From assembly GCA_049719955.1 (NCBI GenBank), contig JBNARC010000002.1:77626-141625 (forward strand): a DNA stretch of 64,000 nt, written 5' to 3'. Shown here one piece after another: positions 7,664-61,240 of this stretch. Both the position numbers and the translations under genes were made by a program. The DNA comes from Moorellales bacterium. GTDB lineage: Bacteria > Bacillota > DSM-521 > Neomoorellales > SLTJ01. Position 1 is the stretch's first letter; every line of letters begins with the position of its first letter. The notes under the pieces are model-generated. The model was given only the letters and a program-made list of their open reading frames with translations. It did no database searches and had not been told where the DNA came from.

Positions 7664-7690
7664 CCCTCCTTTTACCCTGACGAATGCCCC

Positions 7691-7732
7691 CCGGCAAGGT
7701 GCCAATGTACCTAGGGAAGACCCGGAACCGCC
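7691..7732 (-). repeat. Half-copy of the structured repeat family (GAGTACATTGG arm plus one closing-stem strand)
   Basis: CCGGCAAGGTGCCAATGTACCTAGGGAAGACCCGGAACCGCC aligns with the 3' end of the full copy at 60944-61154. Confidence 0.6.
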
Positions 7733-7761
7733 TGCCCACTCTAAACTGGGAATAACTACCA

Positions 7762-19560: not shown

Positions 19561-19594
19561 GGTCTAATCCCTCCCGTGCCCATTTCTCACGAGG

Positions 19595-19645
19595 CTAGTA
19601 GTGTCTGGCGCCGCCCTCGACGTTGATACTCTGTCCGGTTATAAA
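19595..19645 (-). pseudogene. Orphan 3' stub of an SDR gene (last 16 codons plus stop)
   Basis: Minus-strand FITGQSINVEGGARHY* against FITGQNINVEGGARHY* at the end of the intact SDR 20147..20914. No upstream SDR reading frame. Confidence 0.6.
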
Positions 19646-19767
19646 CCGCCGCCATGTACCGCCGTCCAAAGGACAGTACCAAGTGGGCAGTATGGTCACG
19701 AAAGCCGCCTGAAGGCCCTGAATTAATTATAGCCCTTCAATATAAATTAAGAATATCGGGGAAGTAT

Positions 19768-20007: not shown

Positions 20008-20146
20008 CTACAATATACGGTTATCAAAGACCGGTTTCTCTGGGCCAACCGATTACTAACACAGGCTGCTAGAAGCCCTTCTGGCCACCGTTTTCCGCTT
20101 CGCGGTCGGCGGTGGCGTTGAGTTGGGTGGCGCCCAGCGGCACACG

Positions 20147-20914
20147 CTAGTAATGGCGGGCACCGCCCTCTACGTTGATGTTCTGTCCGGTTATGAACCC
20201 ACTATCGTCCGAGGCCAAGAATACCAACACTCCTTCCAAATCCTCGGGCTCCATAGGACGCTTGAAGATGCGCTGCTCCATAGCCACCTTGTAGATAAAC
20301 TCCATTTCGGCCGGGTCGCTGGCAAGCCCCTTGGCCGCCTCGGTCATAGTGAACCCCGGCGTAATGGAGTTCACCCTGATCCCGTACTCTCCCACCTCGC
20401 GAGCCAACGCCCGGGTTAGCGCCCAAATTGCTCCCTTAGAGGCCACATAGTGGCTCAGCAAGGGAGCGCCCTCGATGATGGTGGCGGAGGAAATATTGAT
20501 GATTACCCCTCCACCCTGTTTTTTCATCTGCGGCACTACCGCCCGGCAACAGTTCCAGACCCCCTTCACGTTTACGGCGAAGACCGCGTCCCACTCTTCC
20601 TCCGGGATCGCGTCGAAAGGCTTTAGTTTAAGCCCTCCCAAAAAGGCCGCGTTGTTTACCAAAATGTCGATACGGCCGAACGCGCCCACGGTTTCTTCCG
20701 CCATTTGCTTCACCCGGTCGAATCGGGTTACGTCTACCTGTATACCCAGTACTTCACTCCCCTGAGCTTTGAGCAGGTCTACGGTGCCACCCGGGTCGAG
20801 AATATCGGCCACCACCACCCTGGCGCCCTCCCGACCCAGGCGCCGTGCGAACACCCGGCCGATCCCGCGAGCCGCGCCCGTAACTATGGCCACCCGGCCC
20901 TCCAACCCCGGCAC
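20147..20914 (-). CDS. Short-chain dehydrogenase/reductase (FabG-like)
   Basis: 255 aa. VAIVTGAARGIG, NNAA, and Y..ASK catalytic pattern (SHYVASKGA). Confidence 0.9.
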   Translation of the reverse strand: MPGLEGRVAIVTGAARGIGRVFARRLGREGARVVVADILDPGGTVDLLKAQGSEVLGIQVDVTRFDRVKQMAEETVGAFGRIDILVNNAAFLGGLKLKPFDAIPEEEWDAVFAVNVKGVWNCCRAVVPQMKKQGGGVIINISSATIIEGAPLLSHYVASKGAIWALTRALAREVGEYGIRVNSITPGFTMTEAAKGLASDPAEMEFIYKVAMEQRIFKRPMEPEDLEGVLVFLASDDSGFITGQNINVEGGARHY

Positions 20915-29532: not shown

Positions 29533-29568
29533 GGCCGAACGGCGCTGACGTATCCCCTGTTTCCTCCA

Positions 29569-29653
29569 GGCGGTACCGGGTGCTCCCCGTTCGAACTATC
29601 ACCTCGCCGGGCTCGGTGCGCAAGATTGCCTTAGCGGGTCTGGTTCCCACCGC
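29569..29653 (-). repeat. Short-form copy of the structured repeat family
   Basis: GGCGGTACCGGGTGCTCCCCGTTCGAACTATCACCTCGCCGG... shares the closing-stem strand and the CACCTCGCCG arm with the full copies. Confidence 0.6.
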
Positions 29654-30419: not shown

Positions 30420-30493
30420 GATCTCGCTCCTCTGCCTTCCCTCCCGGGTGGGCAGTAAACCTCCGGCGGCTTTCTCCCACTCCGGCTTCCCAT

Positions 30494-30566
30494 GGGCGGT
30501 ACCGGGTGTTCGCCGTTCGTACCGTCACTTCGCCGACGATACTTGCGCTCAGTCCGGCGCCCCGCC
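30494..30566 (-). repeat. Short-form repeat copy overlapping the 3' end of the radical SAM CDS
   Basis: GGGCGGTACCGGGTGTTCGCCGTTCGTACCGTCACTTCGCCGACGATACTTGCGCTCAG... is near-identical to the copy at 48490-48564. Confidence 0.65.
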
Positions 30567-34768: not shown

Positions 34769-34786
34769 CCACCCACCTGGCGCGCC

Positions 34787-34840
34787 AACGTATCCCCACT
34801 CCTGAGTTGGCCGGCGGTACCGGGTGCTCGGGGATACGTT
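34787..34840. repeat. Hairpin carrying a repeat-family fragment
   Basis: An 11-bp inverted repeat AACGTATCCCC / GGGGATACGTT encloses CTGAGTTGGCCGGCGGTACCGGGTGCTC. Confidence 0.45.
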
Positions 34841-34854
34841 ATCTGGAGTAGCGT

Positions 34855-35369: not shown

Positions 35370-35756
35370 TTACCACAGGACTTCTACCGGATAGCGGGCT
35401 ATCACCGGATCACCGCTAATCAAGGGTAGATTTTCCACCTGCGCCTGGGCCACCAGTAAGCGGTCAAAGGGATCCCGGTGGTAAGCGGGAAGAGCGTGCA
35501 CGCGCAGGGCGTGACTCAACCTTACCGGTAGGGGCAAAATACCGTTCTCGGCCAGTTGTTCGGGTATGAAGCTTTCCAAGTCGTCGGGTAGCGACAGTCT
35601 CCCCAACCCGGCCTTGATGGCGATTTCCCAGGCGCTGGCGGCGCTCAAGTACAGAGTATTCTCTCCGCTGCCGATGATTTCTCGCGCCCGTCCGGACAGT
35701 CTCGAATCATCGGTTATCCACCACAGAAAGACGTGAGTATCAAGGAGGGCCTTCAC
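35370..35756 (-). CDS. vapC: PIN-domain toxin (VapC type)
   Basis: 128 aa. MKALLDTHVFLWW... and PFDRLLVAQA PIN signature. Confidence 0.85.
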   Translation of the reverse strand: MKALLDTHVFLWWITDDSRLSGRAREIIGSGENTLYLSAASAWEIAIKAGLGRLSLPDDLESFIPEQLAENGILPLPVRLSHALRVHALPAYHRDPFDRLLVAQAQVENLPLISGDPVIARYPVEVLW

Positions 35757-35989
35757 TTTTCAAATCCCTCCAAGACTTCTTCCGGAAGCGGGGCATCGAA
35801 GTCGGGAGCCAGCCAAATCTTCCCTTTGGCAGTACCCGGCACCCTCGTCTTCGTCTGTTGGGGGACGGGGACCAGGCGCGCCACGGGCACTCCGGCCTTG
35901 GCGATTATCACCTCTTCCCCTTCGCTAACCCAGGCCAAGAGCCTGGAGAAATGCGTCTTAGCCTCATGAACGTTTACCCGGAAGGGCAC
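35753..35989 (-). CDS. Phd/YefM-type antitoxin
   Basis: 78 aa. VNVHEAKTHFSRLLAWVSEGEEVIIAKAGVPVARLVP. ATGA overlap with vapC. GTG start. Confidence 0.8.
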   Translation of the reverse strand: MPFRVNVHEAKTHFSRLLAWVSEGEEVIIAKAGVPVARLVPVPQQTKTRVPGTAKGKIWLAPDFDAPLPEEVLEGFEK

Positions 35990-36840: not shown

Positions 36841-36870
36841 CCCTCCCCACCTGAACGTCGTGCCGCGACC

Positions 36871-37086
36871 CCGGCGGGCAGGGTTGGATTCCCCGAGTAC
36901 ATTGGAGCCTCGCCGGGCACCGAGCTTAGCGAGGGCAAGCCTGGAGGCGGGCCGAAGGCCACGGATGGCCGAAGCGGCGGGGCGCCATGGACGGCGCTTC
37001 CGCCGGGCGCCCGCCGGAGGGCGAAGCCCGAGCCCTAGCTCGGTCGGCGAGGCGAGAGTACGAGGGGAACCAACCCCGCCCGCCGG
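36871..37086 (+). repeat. Full-length structured palindromic repeat, copy B (216 nt)
   Basis: Closing stem CCGGCGGGCAGGGTTGGATTCCCC / GGGGAACCAACCCCGCCCGCCGG. Core shared with copies at 46864 and 60944 (GAGTACATTGG, TCGCCGGG, AGGCCACGGA, GGACGGCGC, GAGCCCTAG, GGTCGGCGAGG). Confidence 0.85.
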
Positions 37087-37156
37087 ATAACGCGCCTTGC
37101 CCCAGGGGCCTTGCCTCGGGGCCTGTCCGGTTAAATTCTATGCCCCACCGCTGCGG

Positions 37157-38284: not shown

Positions 38285-38510
38285 GCCATCGTCCCGGTCC
38301 GCCCCGCGCCCGGCGCGGGTTAATTTCTGGACGGGCAGGTCTCCTGGCTTCCTTCCTCGCCCTCCTTCCCTTCCCCGGGCGGTAGCGGCTAGACTCCGCC
38401 CCGACCGAGTGGGTCCGGCCGGCGGAAAAAGGAGGGCTCCGGTTCACAGTGGCGGGACCGCGCAGGATTCGCACCTGCTTCCCTATTCTCCGGGCCAACG
38501 CCCGGCACCC
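38236..38510 (-). promoter_or_regulatory. Cobalamin (B12) riboswitch
   Basis: Minus strand shows AATAGGGAAGCAGGTGCGAATCCTGCGCGGTCCCGCCACTGTGA core and B12 box AGCCAGGAGACCTGCC (38334-38349). Confidence 0.88.
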
Positions 38511-38570
38511 GCCCAGCTAGGTTGTTCAGAAACCCATATTCTACTTCCCTCCGGTTTTTCCTTCCGCCCG

Positions 38571-45880: not shown

Positions 45881-45891
45881 GGGAAACATTT

Positions 45892-45910
45892 GGGGAGCAG
45901 CCGGTACCGC
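45892..45910 (-). repeat. Fragment of the repeat closing-stem sequence
   Basis: Minus strand GCGGTACCGGCTGCTCCCC against GCGGTACCGGGTGCTCCCC at 29570. Confidence 0.35.
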
Positions 45911-45946
45911 TTCCGCCCCAAGCCGGGCACACACCGGGACAATTGG

Positions 45947-46786: not shown

Positions 46787-46863
46787 CTTTCTCCCCCCAG
46801 CCAGGTTATCCCTATCTCCCTTGGGTCAAGTTACCCCCACTTCGAAGGCGACTTGGGTTGACT

Positions 46864-47074
46864 GGCGGTACCGGGTCTCGCCTGAGTACATTGGCAACTC
46901 GCCGGGCACCGAACTTGGCGAGGCCGAGCGCGAAGGCGGGCCGGAGGCCACGGACGGCCGCAGCCGAGGAGCGCCATGGACGGCGCTTCCGAGGGGAGCC
47001 CGCCGTAGCGCGAAGGCTGAGCCCTAGTTTGGTCGGCGAGGTGACAGTACGAACGGCGAGCACCCGGTACCGCC
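46864..47074 (+). repeat. Full-length structured palindromic repeat, copy A (211 nt)
   Basis: Closing stem GGCGGTACCGGGTCTCGCC / GGCGAGCACCCGGTACCGCC. Paired arms and two apical hairpins with loops ACGGAC and ATGGAC. Confidence 0.85.
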
Positions 47075-47117
47075 CGTGGGAAGGTAGGATTACGTCAGCC
47101 CTTGAGGCCCTTTGTCG

Positions 47118-48415: not shown

Positions 48416-48489
48416 GCCTCGTCCCTCCTGGCAACAGAGCCGTTACTGTCAAGCCTACCGGCCATGAAACGTATTCCAAGCTTCCCCTA

Positions 48490-48564
48490 GGCGGTACCGG
48501 GTGCTCCCTTTCGTACTGTCACCTCGCCGACGATACTTGCGCTCGGCCTGCACCCGGTACCGCC
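48490..48564 (-). repeat. Short-form repeat copy (75 nt) with intact closing stem
   Basis: GGCGGTACCGGGTGC...GCACCCGGTACCGCC encloses TTCGTACTGTCACCTCGCCGACGATACTTGCGCTCGG. Confidence 0.75.
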
Positions 48565-48590
48565 AGAGCCAACTCAAGGCCGGGGATAAC

Positions 48591-49943
48591 TCAGCTACCG
48601 GCCCCCACACCATCGTCCCGGAGCGCGGCTCCCGGTGCCCATCGCTCCATACGCGCCCGGGCCTCACCCACCAGATAGAAAGAACCGGTAACCAGCACCA
48701 TATCCTCTTCCCCGGCCAGGCCTAACGCCCGATCCAGGGCGGCGTCCAAATCCGCCTCGGCGTACACCGCGCCCACGTGCCTGGCCGCCATACTCGCCAC
48801 CTTTTCCCAATCCCCCGCCCGGGGACTGAGGGGGCGGGTGACCACCACCGCCGCCGCCAAAGGGGCCAAAAGATCCATTATCGCCTCCCTCTCCTTGTCG
48901 GCCAGAAGCCCCACCACCAGGATGATCCGGCGAAAGGCCAGCCGCTCCACCGCCGCCCGCAGGGCCCGGGCGGCGTCCCGATTATGGGCGGCATCGAACG
49001 CCAGGAGCGGGCGGGTGGGCCAAAGCTCCAGCCGGGCCGGCCAGCTCACCCGGGCCAGACCCTCGCGCACCGCCTCCGGCCCGAGCTCAAGCCCCCGGAA
49101 GCGGGCCAGTACTTCGGCCGCCAACACGGCGGTAGCGGCGTTCGCCAGTTGGTGCGGTCCCAACAGAGGCAAGAAGAGTTCGGGATATTCCCGCCCCATC
49201 ACCGTGAGGTCGAAGCGCTGGCCCCGGGTATCCGCTTCCCGGGGCCGGATTTGGGTTTCTTCCTGCACCACGAAAAGCCGGGCCTCTACCTCCCGGCAAC
49301 GTTCTCTGACCGCCTCCAGGGCCTCCCCTTCGGCGGCGGTGACCGCGAAGCCGCCGGGCTTTATTATCCCCGCCTTGGTCCGGGCGATGGCCTCCAGGGT
49401 GCGGCCCAGGTGCTCCATGTGATCCCAACCCACGTTGGTGATCACGCTCACCAGGGGCATAGGGACGGCGTTGGTGGCGTCGTGCTCCCCGCCCATCCCT
49501 ACCTCCATTACCGCCACCTCTACCCCTTGCTCCCGGAAGCCCGCCCAGGCCATGGCGGTGAGCACCTCAAACTCCGTGGGCTCCTCGCCCCGTTCCGCCG
49601 CCAGCCCGGCCACCGCCGGCCGTACCGCTTCCACCAGCCGGGCGAACTCCTCGGGATTTATGGGTCGGCCGTCAATGCGGAAGCGTTCGGTGTAGGAAAC
49701 CAAATGAGGGGAAGTAAAAAGGCCGGTGCGGTAACCGGCCGCTTGCAGTATGCTGGCCAGCATGGCCGCCGTAGACCCCTTGCCGTTAGTGCCCCCCACG
49801 TGAACCACCGGCAGGTCCAGATGGGGATTACCCAGCCGCTCCAGTAGATCCCGGATGCGGTCCAGCCCCAGGTGGATGCCCAGGCGCAGGTAGCTTTCCA
49901 AATAGGCGACGGCTTCTCGGTAGTCCAAGGTTGCTCTCCCCAA
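48591..49943 (-). CDS. folC: Folylpolyglutamate synthase / dihydrofolate synthase
   Basis: 450 aa. VHVGGTNGKGST P-loop and Mur-ligase pattern. Confidence 0.9.
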   Translation of the reverse strand: MGRATLDYREAVAYLESYLRLGIHLGLDRIRDLLERLGNPHLDLPVVHVGGTNGKGSTAAMLASILQAAGYRTGLFTSPHLVSYTERFRIDGRPINPEEFARLVEAVRPAVAGLAAERGEEPTEFEVLTAMAWAGFREQGVEVAVMEVGMGGEHDATNAVPMPLVSVITNVGWDHMEHLGRTLEAIARTKAGIIKPGGFAVTAAEGEALEAVRERCREVEARLFVVQEETQIRPREADTRGQRFDLTVMGREYPELFLPLLGPHQLANAATAVLAAEVLARFRGLELGPEAVREGLARVSWPARLELWPTRPLLAFDAAHNRDAARALRAAVERLAFRRIILVVGLLADKEREAIMDLLAPLAAAVVVTRPLSPRAGDWEKVASMAARHVGAVYAEADLDAALDRALGLAGEEDMVLVTGSFYLVGEARARMERWAPGAALRDDGVGAGS

Positions 49944-52684: not shown

Positions 52685-52690
52685 GACTTA

Positions 52691-52734
52691 AGCTCGGCAC
52701 CCGGCGAGCTGCCAATGTACTCAGGAGAGCACCC
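52691..52734 (-). repeat. Half-copy of the repeat family between lon and the valS promoter
   Basis: AGCTCGGCACCCGGCGAGCTGCCAATGTACTCAGGAGAGCACCC matches the GAGTACATTGG arm. Confidence 0.6.
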
Positions 52735-52766
52735 ATGCCTGCCCGCAAACCCGAGCCAGCGACAAC

Positions 52767-55109
52767 TCAGGCCGACGACCGGCCGTTCACCAGGGCGTGG
52801 GGCAGCACCTCGTCCATGTGCCCCACCAGGATGAACTGCATCTTGCGCCGGATGTTGGCCGGGATCTCCTCCAGGTTCTTCTCGTTCTCCCGGGGCAGGA
52901 TTACGGTCTTAATCCCCGCCCGGTGCGCGGCCAGCACCTTCTCCTTAATGCCCCCCACCGGCAGCACCCGGCCGCGCAGGGTGATCTCTCCGGTCATGGC
53001 CACGTCGCGGCGCACCGGCTGGTTGGTCAGGGAAGAGGCCAGGGCCGTGGCCATGGTTATTCCCGCACTGGGCCCGTCCTTGGGGATGGCCCCCTCGGGC
53101 ACGTGGATGTGGAGGTCATACTTCTCGTAGAAATCCTCGGGAATGCCCAGCTCCTGAGCTTTAGAGCGGATGTAGCTAAACCCTGCCTGGGCGGATTCCC
53201 GCATCACCTCGCCCAGCTTGCCGGTAAGGGTGAGGTTACCCTTGCCCTTCACCACCGTGGCCTCCACGCTCAGCACTTCCCCGCCGTTCTCGGTCCAGGC
53301 CAGGCCCGTGGCCACCCCTACCTGGTTCTCTTCGTCAATGACTCCGTAGCGGTAGCGGGGTATGCCCAGCCAGTGGGGCAGGCTCTGGCTGCTCACCTTA
53401 ACGCTTTGCGCCTTACCGGTCACGATATCCCGGGCCACTTTCCGGCAGATGGTGGCTATCTGCCGCTCTAGATTCCGCACCCCCGCCTCCCGGGTGTACT
53501 CCCGGATTATGCGTCGGATGGCGTTCTCGGAGAGGCTGAGCTGCTTGGGCTTAAGCCCGTGCTCCTTGAGCTGGCGGGGCAGAAGGTGGCGGAGCGCAAT
53601 CTGCACCTTCTCCTCCTCGGTGTAGCCCGAGATGGTGATTACTTCCATCCGGTCCAGAAGCGGCCGGGGAATGGTATGCACCACGTTGGCGGTGGTGATG
53701 AAGAACACCTTGGAAAGATCAAAGGGCGATTCTATATAATGATCGCTGAAAGCGTGGTTCTGCTCCGGGTCCAGCACCTCCAGCAGCGCCGAGGTGGGGT
53801 CGCCCCGGAAGTCCATGCCCACCTTGTCGATCTCGTCCAGAAGGAACACCGGGTTCTTGGTGCCCGCCTGCTTCATGCCCTGGATGATGCGTCCGGGCAG
53901 GGCCCCCACGTAGGTGCGGCGGTGCCCCCGGATCTCGGCCTCGTCCCGAATGCCCCCCAGGGAGATGCGCACAAATTTCCGGCCCATGGCCCGGGCGATG
54001 GACTTGGCCAGCGAGGTCTTGCCCACCCCGGGCGGTCCTACAAAGCACAGGATGGGGCCCTTCATCTTCCGGGCCAGCTTGCGGATGGCCAGGTACTCCA
54101 GGATGCGGTCCTTAACCTCTTTCAGCCCGTAGTGGTCCTCATCCAGAATCTTCTCCGCCAGGGCCACGTCCAGCCGGTCCCTGGTCTGCTCGGCCCAAGG
54201 CAGGGACAGGAGCCAGTCCAGGTAGTTACGCACCACCGTGGCTTCGGCCACCATGGGCGGCATCTTTTCCAGCCGCTCTACTTCCTTAAGCGCCTTCTCC
54301 CGCACCTCTTTGGGCAGCCGGGCCTTGTCGATGCGCTCCCTAAGCTCCTCCACTTCCGCCGCCCGCTCGTCCTTCTCGCCCAGCTCCTTCTGGATGGCCT
54401 TTATCTGCTCCCGCAGGTAGTACTCCTTCTGGGTCTTTTCCATCTGCTTGCGCACCCGCTGGTTGATGCGCCGCTCCAGCTCCAGAATCTCCATCTCCTG
54501 GGCCAGAATGCGCAGCAAGAGCTCCAGCCTCTCCTTGACCTCCAGGGCCTCCAGCAGGGCCTGCTTGTCGGCCAGCTTAAGGTTCAGGTGGGCGGCGATG
54601 GCGTCCGCCAGCCGGCCGGGGTCGTCCAGGTTGGAAACCGTAACCACCGTCTCCGGCGGGATCTTCTTGCTGTTCTTCACGTACTCCTCAAATTGGTCCA
54701 GCAACGCCCGCACCAGGGCGTCTATCTCTACGTCCCGCTCCACCGGCGGCGAGCTTACCTGCACCTCCACCTCGAGATAAGGCTCCAGGCGCAGGAACCG
54801 CAAGATCACCCCTCGGGCCAATCCTTCCACCAGAATGCGGATGGTGCCTCCCGGCAGCTTCAGGAGTTGCTTAATCTCCGCCACCGTACCCACGGCGAAG
54901 ATGTCGCCCTCTCCGGGGTCGTCCGTCTCCGCCTCTTTCTGCATGGCCAGAAGTATGCGCCGGTCCTCCAGCATGGCCTGGTCAATAGCCGCCACCGACT
55001 TCTCCCGGCCCACGTCCAGGTGCACCACCATATGGGGGAACACCGCCACTCCCCGCAGGGGGAGCAAGGGTATGGTCCGTATCTCGCTGCCGCGTGGAAC
55101 CCGTAGCAT
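52767..55109 (-). CDS. lon: ATP-dependent protease LonA
   Basis: 780 aa. N-domain [18 protein letters not shown]+ GPPGVGKTS, protease DGPSAGITM. Confidence 0.95.
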
Positions 55110-55240: not shown

Positions 55241-55277
55241 TTGACATTAAGTAAGCTAGGCCTTAAGCTCTACTTAA
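55241..55277 (+). promoter_or_regulatory. Promoter and inverted-repeat operator of the orphan antitoxin gene
   Basis: TTGACA, 17-nt spacer, TAAGCT. Inverted repeat TTAAGTA (55247-55253) / TACTTAA (55271-55277), plus two CTTAAG palindromes. Confidence 0.4.
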
Positions 55278-55323
55278 GGGTACACATTAAGGTCTGGGAA
55301 TTGCTGAGAAGGGGAGAAGGAAT

Positions 55324-55605
55324 ATGGAACGGATCACAGGCATTAATGAGGCTCGACCAAGGCTGACCCAACTGGTCAACTCGGTGGCCGCCGATAAGTC
55401 GGCGGTAATAATTACCGTCAATAGCGAGCCGAAGGCCGTGCTTATCGATTACGAGGAGTACCGGTCGCTTACCCGGGCCCGGGAAGAAAACAAACGGCTG
55501 GCCCTGAGACTGGCCCTGGCCGACCTCCGGTCCCGAGCTGCGGCCGCGGGTATCACCGACCAGGACGTGGTGGAAGAAATCAAAGCCCACCGCGAAAACC
55601 AATGA
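55324..55605 (+). CDS. Phd/YefM-type antitoxin
   Basis: 93 aa. ITGINEARPRLTQLVNSVAADKSAVIITVNSEPKAVLIDYEEY. Strong GGGGAGAAGG SD. Confidence 0.8.
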   Translation: MERITGINEARPRLTQLVNSVAADKSAVIITVNSEPKAVLIDYEEYRSLTRAREENKRLALRLALADLRSRAAAAGITDQDVVEEIKAHRENQ

Positions 55606-55706
55606 GGGTAGTGCTGGACACAAACGTGGTGAAGCCAATTCCTAGAAATCGTCCGGGAAGGCCAATCCTCACCTTAAGACGAATACGCGGACCGGTAAGG
55701 GATTAA
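55602..55706 (+). pseudogene. Truncated PIN-domain toxin stub (34 codons)
   Basis: ATGA-coupled to the antitoxin. It starts MRVVLDTNVV (canonical PIN N-terminus), then diverges and stops inside the 3' end of lonB. Confidence 0.5.
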
Positions 55707-60778: not shown

Positions 60779-60866
60779 TGGTGCGGGCGGGGGGACTTGA
60801 ACCCCCATGGGCCTGACACCCACCAGATCCTAAGTCTGGCGCGTCTGCCAGTTCCGCCACGCCCGC
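60779..60866 (-). tRNA. tRNA-Leu (anticodon UAG), CCA encoded
   Basis: GCGGGCG acceptor stem / CGCCCGC-ACCA. Anticodon arm CCAGA-CTTAGGA-TCTGG. Long variable arm. T-arm GGGGG-TTCAAGT-CCCCC. Confidence 0.9.
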
Positions 60867-60943
60867 CCGGCGATTTAAGCCTACCACATCGATTCCGCCA
60901 GCGTCAAGGGGTAGGAGCTCTGAGCGGATTCCCAGTTTGCCTT

Positions 60944-61154
60944 GGGCGGTTCGGGGTCTCCCCTTCGTACTGTCACCTCGCCGACCGAACTAGGGCTCGG
61001 GCTTCGCCCTCCGGCGGGCACTCGGCGGAGGCGCCGTCCGTGGCGCCCCGCCGCTTCGGCCGTCCGTGGCCTCCGGCCCGCCTTCGGACCTGCCCTTGCC
61101 AAGTTCGGTTCCCGGCGAAGTGCCAATGTACTCAGAGGAGACCCCGAACCGCCC
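60944..61154 (-). repeat. Full-length structured palindromic repeat, copy C (211 nt, inverted relative to copies A and B)
   Basis: Perfect 18-bp closing stem GGGCGGTTCGGGGTCTCC / GGAGACCCCGAACCGCCC. Same core as copies A and B when read on the minus strand. Confidence 0.85.
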
Positions 61155-61240
61155 GGCCACCCGCAACCGGAGATAACTCAGGTAGAGAAGGCCGACGCCC
61201 CTCCTTGACCGCGCCGCCGGCTTGTGTTACCTTGGGAGCG

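Follow-up and report, generated by a model that had tools for sequence, protein, structure and literature searches.

The window, i.e. the whole stretch of 64,000 nt analysed here (positions 77,626 to 141,625 of contig JBNARC010000002.1 of the Moorellales bacterium assembly GCA_049719955.1), carries housekeeping operons and a set of genes for metabolic enzymes, and the host genes around the copies of the dispersed repeat described below are all located on the minus strand. The housekeeping genes of the region are tig-clpP-clpX-lonB-lon-valS-folC-rex-maf-radC-mreBCD-pbp2-minCDE-rodA, cobT and rplU, and these operons are interrupted here and there by several small genes of toxin-antitoxin type (PhdYeFM, PIN, MazE-like, HepT-like). 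Comparison of the window with Rfam at the gathering threshold returned a cobalamin riboswitch and a tRNA only. A 54-nt direct repeat, unrelated to the dispersed element, was also noted (Table 1). Most of the long intergenic gaps of the region are accounted for by copies of this element, which is of use for genome annotation.

The copies were searched with blastn and with an nhmmer profile, which gave E-values of 1e-64 to 1e-73 for full copies, and fragments were regarded as supported at a profile E-value below 1e-5. The window holds three full copies (A, B and C), five significant fragments and two tiny remnants, all of them intergenic. The three full-length copies and the intergenic location of all copies given in a preliminary description of this DNA were thereby recovered, while its count of at least eight short or fragmentary copies came down to seven (five with E < 1e-5 and the two remnants). 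The smallest two-ended remnant, at 34785..34842, is below the workable length for nhmmer and was read by eye. An additional full copy of the same genome lies approximately 1.8 kb past the window start (L130:17048-17311). No transposase gene was found in the window by means of gene lists, Pfam or tblastn with the IS10 transposase, as had been noted before, and comparison of the whole element with a plasmid collection gave no match; viral contigs gave none either.

Table 1. Copies of the dispersed element, their parts and other features of the region (window coordinates unless a locus is named; TIR, terminal inverted repeat)
Feature	Position	Strand	Score or identity	Remarks
Full copy A	46826..47098 (273 bp)	+	nhmmer E = 1.5e-73, match 46831-47097	antisense to flanking maf and radC
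Copy A, TIR-L	46826-46838			TCAAGTTACCCCC
Copy A, long hairpin	46864-47074			
Copy A, TIR-R	47086-47098			AGGATTACGTCAG
Copy A, apex	46946..46994	+		hairpin 1 GGCC-ACGGAC-GGCC 46946-46959; hairpin 2 46964-46994, loop ATGGAC
Full copy B	36851..37096	+	nhmmer E = 3e-64, match 36850-37097	hairpin ~36875-37083; between cobT and M23 peptidase gene, antisense to the two
Full copy C	60920..61181 (262 bp)	-	nhmmer E = 1.8e-72, match 60924-61182	hairpin 60945-61153; oriented like the flanking genes
Copy C, ends	TIR-L 61169-61181; TIR-R 60920-60933	-		TIR-L CTGAGTTATCTCC
Internally deleted 131-bp copy	48464..48594	-	E = 1.7e-11, match 48468-48553	both terminal repeats kept; between folC and rex
Internally deleted 83-bp copy	7677..7759	-	E = 3.6e-6, match 7689-7757	TIR-L, left arm, TIR-R CTGACGAATGCCC at 7677-7689; between CoA-transferase gene and biotin-carrier gene
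Right-end fragment	29545..29610	-	E = 1.3e-6, match 29546-29610	right arm and TIR-R (CTGACGTATCCCC, 29545-29557 on + strand); upstream of rplU (L21) operon
Right-arm fragment	30483..30554	-	E = 2.5e-9	between radical-SAM gene and DUF2344 gene
Left-end fragment	52689..52770	-	E = 2e-9, match 52689-52746	TIR-L CTGAGTTGTCGC and left arm; between lon and valS
Minimal 58-bp remnant	34785..34842	-		both TIRs (AACGTATCCCC ... GGGGATACGTT) around the hairpin's last 17 nt; read from sequence
Closing-stem remnant (~25 nt)	about 45888..45916	+		GGAGCAGCCGGTACCGCTTCC; between radC and mreB; read by eye
Target-site duplication of the 131-bp copy	48455-48463 and 48595-48603		9/9	CTACCGGCC
Target-site duplication of metagenome copy L114			9/9	CGGAGCCTG
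Target-site duplication of L130 copy	element L130:17048-17311		9/9	CAGCGCCGG
Cobalamin riboswitch	38317-38527	-	99.4 bits	upstream of cobT; copy B just downstream of cobT
tRNA	60782-60866			downstream of copy C
54-nt direct repeat	19594-19647 / 20146-20199		85% identical	552 nt apart
Toxin-antitoxin gene sites	about 55270-55640, 35370-35760; L123:1658-2915			

In the preliminary description the repeat had been delimited as a palindrome of 211 nt, positions 46864-47074 in copy A. Its closing inverted repeat of 19/20 nt, the nested arm pairings and the two apical hairpins were all found in place, so this segment is a real hairpin; it is, however, only the inner part of an element of approximately 262-274 bp, as the similarity between copies runs 25-35 nt further on each side via a variable linker up to outer terminal inverted repeats. 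Folded as a single strand, copy A forms one long imperfect hairpin of about 90 bp with a minimum free energy of -135.3 kcal/mol (z = -8.2; none of 200 shuffled sequences was as stable), and the opposite strand reaches -125.6 kcal/mol. Conservation was analysed in seven aligned full copies, which come from the two species compared below and from two metagenomes. Their consensus is a hairpin of 71 pairs with standard pairing in 92.7% of the cells, whereas sliding the partners by 1-3 columns left pairing at only 32-45%. Changes on both sides of a pair numbered 19, compared to 10.4 +/- 1.8 in column shuffles, and none of 500 shuffles reached the observed value. The hairpin is kept by compensatory changes, and the earlier view of a structured palindromic family dispersed over intergenic gaps, which a lack of structural covariation would have refuted, is borne out by the fold and by these changes. 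Since compensatory changes are equally expected of a DNA palindrome, an RNA hairpin and a DNA palindrome are not separated by covariation. The strand that carries the AYGGAY loops described below is more stable as RNA by 10-26 kcal/mol in this Moorellales family, and the internal loops on this strand are purine-rich in all copies (GAA opposite GGA or GUA). Counts on the consensus structure gave about 10 G-U against 2-5 A-C combinations, but when the arms were crudely aligned to each other the counts were mixed, so that the evidence on the strand is not uniform.

The ends of the element became apparent when every copy was turned the same way and compared together with its flanking DNA. They are 13-bp terminal inverted repeats, CTGAGTTATCCCC or CTGACGTATCCCC on one side and the complement ending in TCAG on the other, with the consensus CTGA[G/C][T/G]TATCCCC. 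These repeats were present at both ends of copies A and C, of the copies L114 and L130 and of short copies, and those of copy B are degenerate (CTGAACGTCGTGC ... CGGATAACGCGCC). Around the 211-nt palindrome no target-site duplication had been seen, but at the true ends perfect 9-bp duplications directly abut three of eight elements, namely the 131-bp copy at 48464, L114 and L130. Copy A is flanked by a near-duplicate, CCCTTGGG (46818-46825) and CCCTTGAGG (47099-47107), with 8/9 matching positions and one indel. As a control, the best of 56 flank comparisons across different elements reached 6/9.

For comparison, the ends of IS10 were taken from plasmid R100 (inside end CTGAGAGATCCCC, outside end CTGATGAATCCCC), where they adjoin a gene annotated as 'IS4-like element ISVsa5 family transposase'. 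The terminal repeat of the element agrees with the IS10 inside end at 11/13 positions and with the outside end at 10/13 positions; the estimated chance of a single match of this kind is ~1e-5, but a chance match can no longer be neglected once all known IS ends are considered. Elements of the IS10 subgroup of the IS4 family have ends starting with 'CT' and generate 9-bp direct repeats (PMC2266710). The present element possesses 5′-CT ends and a 9-bp duplication as well (compare Table 1 of PMC2266710), and these shared features agree with an IS10-type enzyme; the previous statement that no known IS end was recognisable has to be revised in this respect. Searches with the IS10 transposase by tblastn gave no match in the window or in the loci fetched before L125-L130, and in a protein-database search only Gammaproteobacteria were among the best 120 matches. 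Neither an autonomous partner with these ends in the approximately 90 kb of the genome covered nor a candidate DDE transposase with a YREK motif was found. Among the copies compared, only those of the Moorellales family have IS10-like ends; the gut, Thermincola-like and other copies described below have unrelated arms. The target consensus of IS10 is NGCTNAGCN, and it was not evident in the three duplicated 9-mers.

Occupancy of the insertion sites was compared with a related species (Rex 79% identical) with conserved gene order, for which the loci L127 (JGI metagenome) and L128 (GCA_024653205.1) were used. The folC-rex gap of the related species has a length of 29 nt and no element, compared to 175 nt with the 131-bp copy in the window, and its maf-radC gap likewise lacks an element at the position of copy A. 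Conversely, a full element is located between radC and mreB in the related species, where only some 25 nt of it are left at the homologous site of the window, and a full element in the opposite orientation is found between lon and valS, where the copy of the window is truncated. Rex of the window, which stems from an uncultured bacterium, is 100% identical to a protein recorded as 'MAG: Moorellales bacterium'. At strain level, two contigs of the MAG GCA_049721505.1 are collinear with the window and 99.3-99.7% identical to it; no difference in occupancy was seen between them and the window, and the same copies are present. The transposon ends, the 9-bp duplications and the occupancy differing between species identify the repeat as a non-autonomous transposable element (MITE), which decays by internal deletion and in this way gives rise to short and fragmentary copies. 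Copies of this genome agree with each other to only 84-94%, and internal deletion or breakage is frequent among them, so the family looks old, and it may be inactive by now.

At three insertion sites the TGA within the left terminal repeat (C-TGA-G) is the stop codon of the upstream ORF (48591-48593, 52767-52769 and 61178-61180), the ORFs concerned being folC, lon and an unannotated ORF of 92 aa. Without the insertion, the folC frame would go on for about 17 codons, which suggests that the element took the place of the original C-terminus.

The loops of the two apical hairpins are ACGGAC or ACGGAT and ATGGAC or ACGGAC in every full copy and thus fit the motif AYGGAY. Below both hairpins a shared stem is formed by GGCGGGC pairing with GCCCGCC, which is invariant but for one cell, and further stems follow below this helix. 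When Rfam was searched in E-value mode, the apex of copy A gave a local match to TwoAYGGAY (RF01731) with 19.7 bits (model positions 49-108) and that of copy B one with 23.4 bits; the two matches fall within model positions 47-111 of 168 and do not reach the gathering score of 43 bits. Copy C gave no match to TwoAYGGAY at E <= 10. TwoAYGGAY goes back to Weinberg et al. 2010 (PMC2864571), who reported it as a probable non-coding RNA with no function assigned. Binding of CsrA was suggested later (PMC4333381, 2015; bioRxiv 10.64898/2026.09.22.753630), and Bacillota members are said to possess an elongated basal stem (bioRxiv 10.64898/2026.09.22.753630). In the same preprint of September 2026 large swings of the copy number and a 'mobile-element-like expansion' were reported, with the mode of spread left unresolved.

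A pattern of 26 specified bases derived from the apices of the three window copies only (GCCACGGANGGC, 7-25 nt, GCGCCANGGACGGCGC) retrieved more than 120 metagenome loci, mostly from human gut. Rfam was applied to 18 of these loci, of which 9 carry TwoAYGGAY with 12 matches of 43-145 bits, namely 128-145 bits for gut loci, 84-86 bits for two others and 43-45 bits for two Thermincola-like loci. For the loop bases, this pattern-based check of continuity contains some circularity, which does not extend to the Rfam verdict on the loci. The loci with these scores are long hairpins of 220-330 nt which have the same tip on unrelated arms, and the lower stem of hairpin 2 covaries between lineages by compensatory changes. 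Scanning of a genome collection with the apex pattern yielded one true relative in a Thermincola MAG and one chance match in a coding region. The Thermincola relative (L001:5-222; Thermincola sp. MAG from an African mine) is a hairpin of about 220 nt with AT-richer, unrelated arms; its apex equals the window copies at the 26 pattern bases, is about 85% identical overall and remains below the Rfam threshold. Judged by sequence and predicted structure, the apex is a divergent, sub-threshold TwoAYGGAY motif, so that the earlier statement that no known RNA family was recognised does not stand after the Rfam comparison. Sub-threshold relatives of TwoAYGGAY which are missed by the Rfam model hence exist in GC-rich, thermophile-like Bacillota. 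With IS10-type terminal repeats and target duplications at hand, the claim of a new class fails as well; the element represents a new family combining two known kinds (MITE and TwoAYGGAY).

Within approximately 80 kb of the genome, 9 of 11 copies are oriented like the flanking genes (one-sided binomial, about 0.03). As the copies are located between a stop codon and the next start and are mostly in gene sense, they are probably co-transcribed. Scans revealed neither a promoter nor an intrinsic terminator belonging to the element; in particular, no intrinsic terminator was found at copies A or C, the tails of which are not U-rich. The GGA triplets in the two apical loops of copy A are 26 nt apart. 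The SELEX consensus of CsrA is RUACARGGAUGU with GGA in a hairpin loop, and one CsrA dimer bridges sites at a distance of 10-63 nt (PMC7652899). A search with B. subtilis CsrA by tblastn gave no match in the window or in the loci fetched before L125-L130, and no csrA gene was seen in the approximately 90 kb of the genome covered.

Downstream of four gene-sense copies (29545 copy, copy C, 48464 copy and L114) the sequence TTGAC(A/G) follows 11-12 nt after the right terminal repeat, in the window at ~29528, ~60903 and ~48448, respectively. Three of these four cases resemble promoters with a spacer of 17-18 nt and a TGn-extended -10 region when read by eye, below the threshold of the promoter scan, and in a fifth copy (L127:12530) the repeat is followed after 11 nt by TTGCTC, with TATAAT further downstream. 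The 9-bp duplication separates the terminal repeat from TTGACA in L114 and in the 48464 copy. No such arrangement is present at five other ends (A, B, L115, L130 and 7677). Insertion just upstream of -35 boxes is suggested by this small sample.

Taken together, it is reasonably probable that the element is an IS10-type MITE of approximately 262-274 bp whose hairpin carries a TwoAYGGAY tip and which has been moved in trans, the RNA role being the weaker part of this interpretation. It would be mobilised by cut-and-paste through a DDE transposase of the IS4 family (IS10 subgroup) whose gene would lie elsewhere in the genome, and the long palindrome in between may favour contact of the two ends. 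Copies in gene sense would be co-transcribed between operons, and the transcribed tip would then present two ANGGAN loops 26 nt apart. Two loops at this distance suit one dimer of the CsrA/Rsm type, so that a small RNA module for protein binding would travel with the MITE; at the RNA level, CsrA binding or a similar role may be envisaged. A more far-reaching version, in which an IS10-type transposase spreads a portable two-site CsrA-binding hairpin into short gaps between operons and thereby rewires post-transcriptional control, is speculative and judged unlikely as a whole. Insertion would in that case prefer positions 11-12 bp upstream of -35-like TTGAC boxes in the orientation of the downstream gene, and the 'mobile-element-like expansion' of TwoAYGGAY, if this holds true, would for the first time be given a concrete mechanism.

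Several other explanations were weighed against the IS10-type MITE with a TwoAYGGAY tip. The closest one, a purely selfish MITE whose hairpin and AYGGAY tip have no function at the RNA level in this genome, is a serious possibility, albeit a somewhat unlikely one. The hairpin would then persist by shared ancestry or by a need at the DNA level, e.g. cruciform-assisted pairing of the ends or a site for a host factor, and the occurrence of copies in both orientations, their free decay and the lack of a promoter or terminator at the element fit this well, as do the mixed counts of wobble-pair asymmetry between the alignments and the fact that compensatory changes are also seen in palindromic DNA. 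However, one and the same apex recurs in Thermincola-like, gut and other lineages whose arms are unrelated, which points to selection on the tip itself. The purine-rich internal loops (GAA/GGA) on the AYGGAY strand of all copies, the terminator-like hairpin with a T-run that follows gut-type copies on that strand (read by eye) and the orientation shared by 9 of 11 copies with the flanking genes likewise speak against a purely selfish element. If, on the other hand, the hairpin were primarily a structural RNA at operon boundaries, i.e. a terminator, an insulator or a 3′-end stabiliser like REP/ERIC, its mobility would be incidental. The very stable stems and the position of sense copies directly after the upstream stop codon and before the next promoter-like site are in line with such a role, which is nevertheless improbable: no U-tract is located 3′ of the hairpin and the terminator scan was empty at the elements, two full copies are antisense, fragments without hairpin persist at similar sites, and the conserved AYGGAY loops are left unexplained.

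Stand-alone TwoAYGGAY sRNA genes multiplied by duplication or recombination are disfavoured and very improbable; the family matched by the apex has indeed been regarded as a probable non-coding RNA (PMC2864571), but terminal inverted repeats with perfect 9-bp target duplications and an occupancy that differs between species speak against multiplication of this kind, and neither a promoter nor a terminator was found. REP/REPIN and IS200/IS605 systems have no target duplications and no terminal inverted repeats. The element has both and is 5-10 times longer than a REP, so that movement of a palindrome of this type by RAYT or TnpA(Y1), a lead proposed in the preliminary description, is contradicted and its probability is minimal, even though the element is a dispersed intergenic palindrome and copies of TwoAYGGAY in Pseudomonas adjoin REP arrays (bioRxiv 10.64898/2026.09.22.753630).

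The element resembles TwoAYGGAY (RF01731) in its pair of adjacent hairpins with AYGGAY loops, in the basal stem that carries both of them and in internal loops rich in G and A; it is also multi-copy, intergenic and provided with an elongated basal stem as described for Bacillota, and bona fide members were retrieved by the pattern derived from the window. It differs from the family in its scores of 19.7-23.4 bits compared to the gathering score of 43, in its hairpin 1 of 4 bp instead of about 8, in a GC-rich basal stem of about 90 bp with a sequence unrelated to other lineages, and in the location of the motif inside an element with defined transposon ends. With IS10/Tn10 (IS10 subgroup, IS4 family) it shares the 5′-CT ends, the core CTGA...ATCCCC and the 9-bp target duplication, in a likeness which is not clear beyond the first 13 bp. 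Unlike IS10, it has no transposase gene and a length of about 270 bp compared to 1329 bp, and its host is a Moorellales bacterium while the IS10 subgroup is mostly proteobacterial.

Correia/NEMIS elements of Neisseria and ERIC/IRU elements of enterobacteria are imperfect palindromes of 100-300 bp with terminal repeats and target duplications, which are inserted in intergenic regions, co-transcribed, present in full and internally deleted forms, and fold as long hairpins in transcripts. The element is like them an intergenic imperfect palindrome with terminal repeats and full and deleted forms. These elements duplicate TA, and their ends differ from those found here; we know of no Correia/NEMIS or ERIC/IRU element with a motif conserved across phyla on unrelated arms. 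CsrB/RsmZ sponge RNAs have in common with the element the GGA in hairpin loops and a spacing suited to one CsrA dimer. In contrast to these RNAs, the element offers only two sites, lacks its own promoter and terminator and forms part of a transposon instead of a dedicated gene, and no csrA was seen in the approximately 90 kb mentioned above. As far as the searchable literature shows, the combination of a MITE with IS10-type ends and a TwoAYGGAY cargo has not been described. Its readable ends and exact 9-bp duplications point to a specific enzyme family, the IS10-type DDE transposases, and with it a testable route for the spread of TwoAYGGAY.

Two further observations concern copies outside the window. 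L021:7027-11606 and 63 of the fetched loci, almost all of the human gut type, have bona fide TwoAYGGAY copies (139-145 bits) beside paralogous genes for a protein of 360 aa, which by eye is Rpn/PD-(D/E)XK 'transposase'-like and whose paralogues have conserved C-terminal 57 aa in common. Several units of the 360-aa gene and TwoAYGGAY RNA are arranged in tandem, and a terminator-like hairpin with a T-run was read by eye 3′ of the RNA strand of gut-type copies. Furthermore, the two assemblies of the related species, which have identical Rex, are the same until the middle of an element downstream of radC (L127:12292-12504 and L128:12292-12503) and diverge from there on, either by recombination between copies or by an assembly chimera at the repeat. 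Elements of this family also seem to coincide with a break in synteny or assembly between two related MAGs. In L128, the right half of the element is that of a different subfamily and has lost the pairing with the left half, and the element is followed by mreB in L127 and by an aldehyde dehydrogenase gene in L128.
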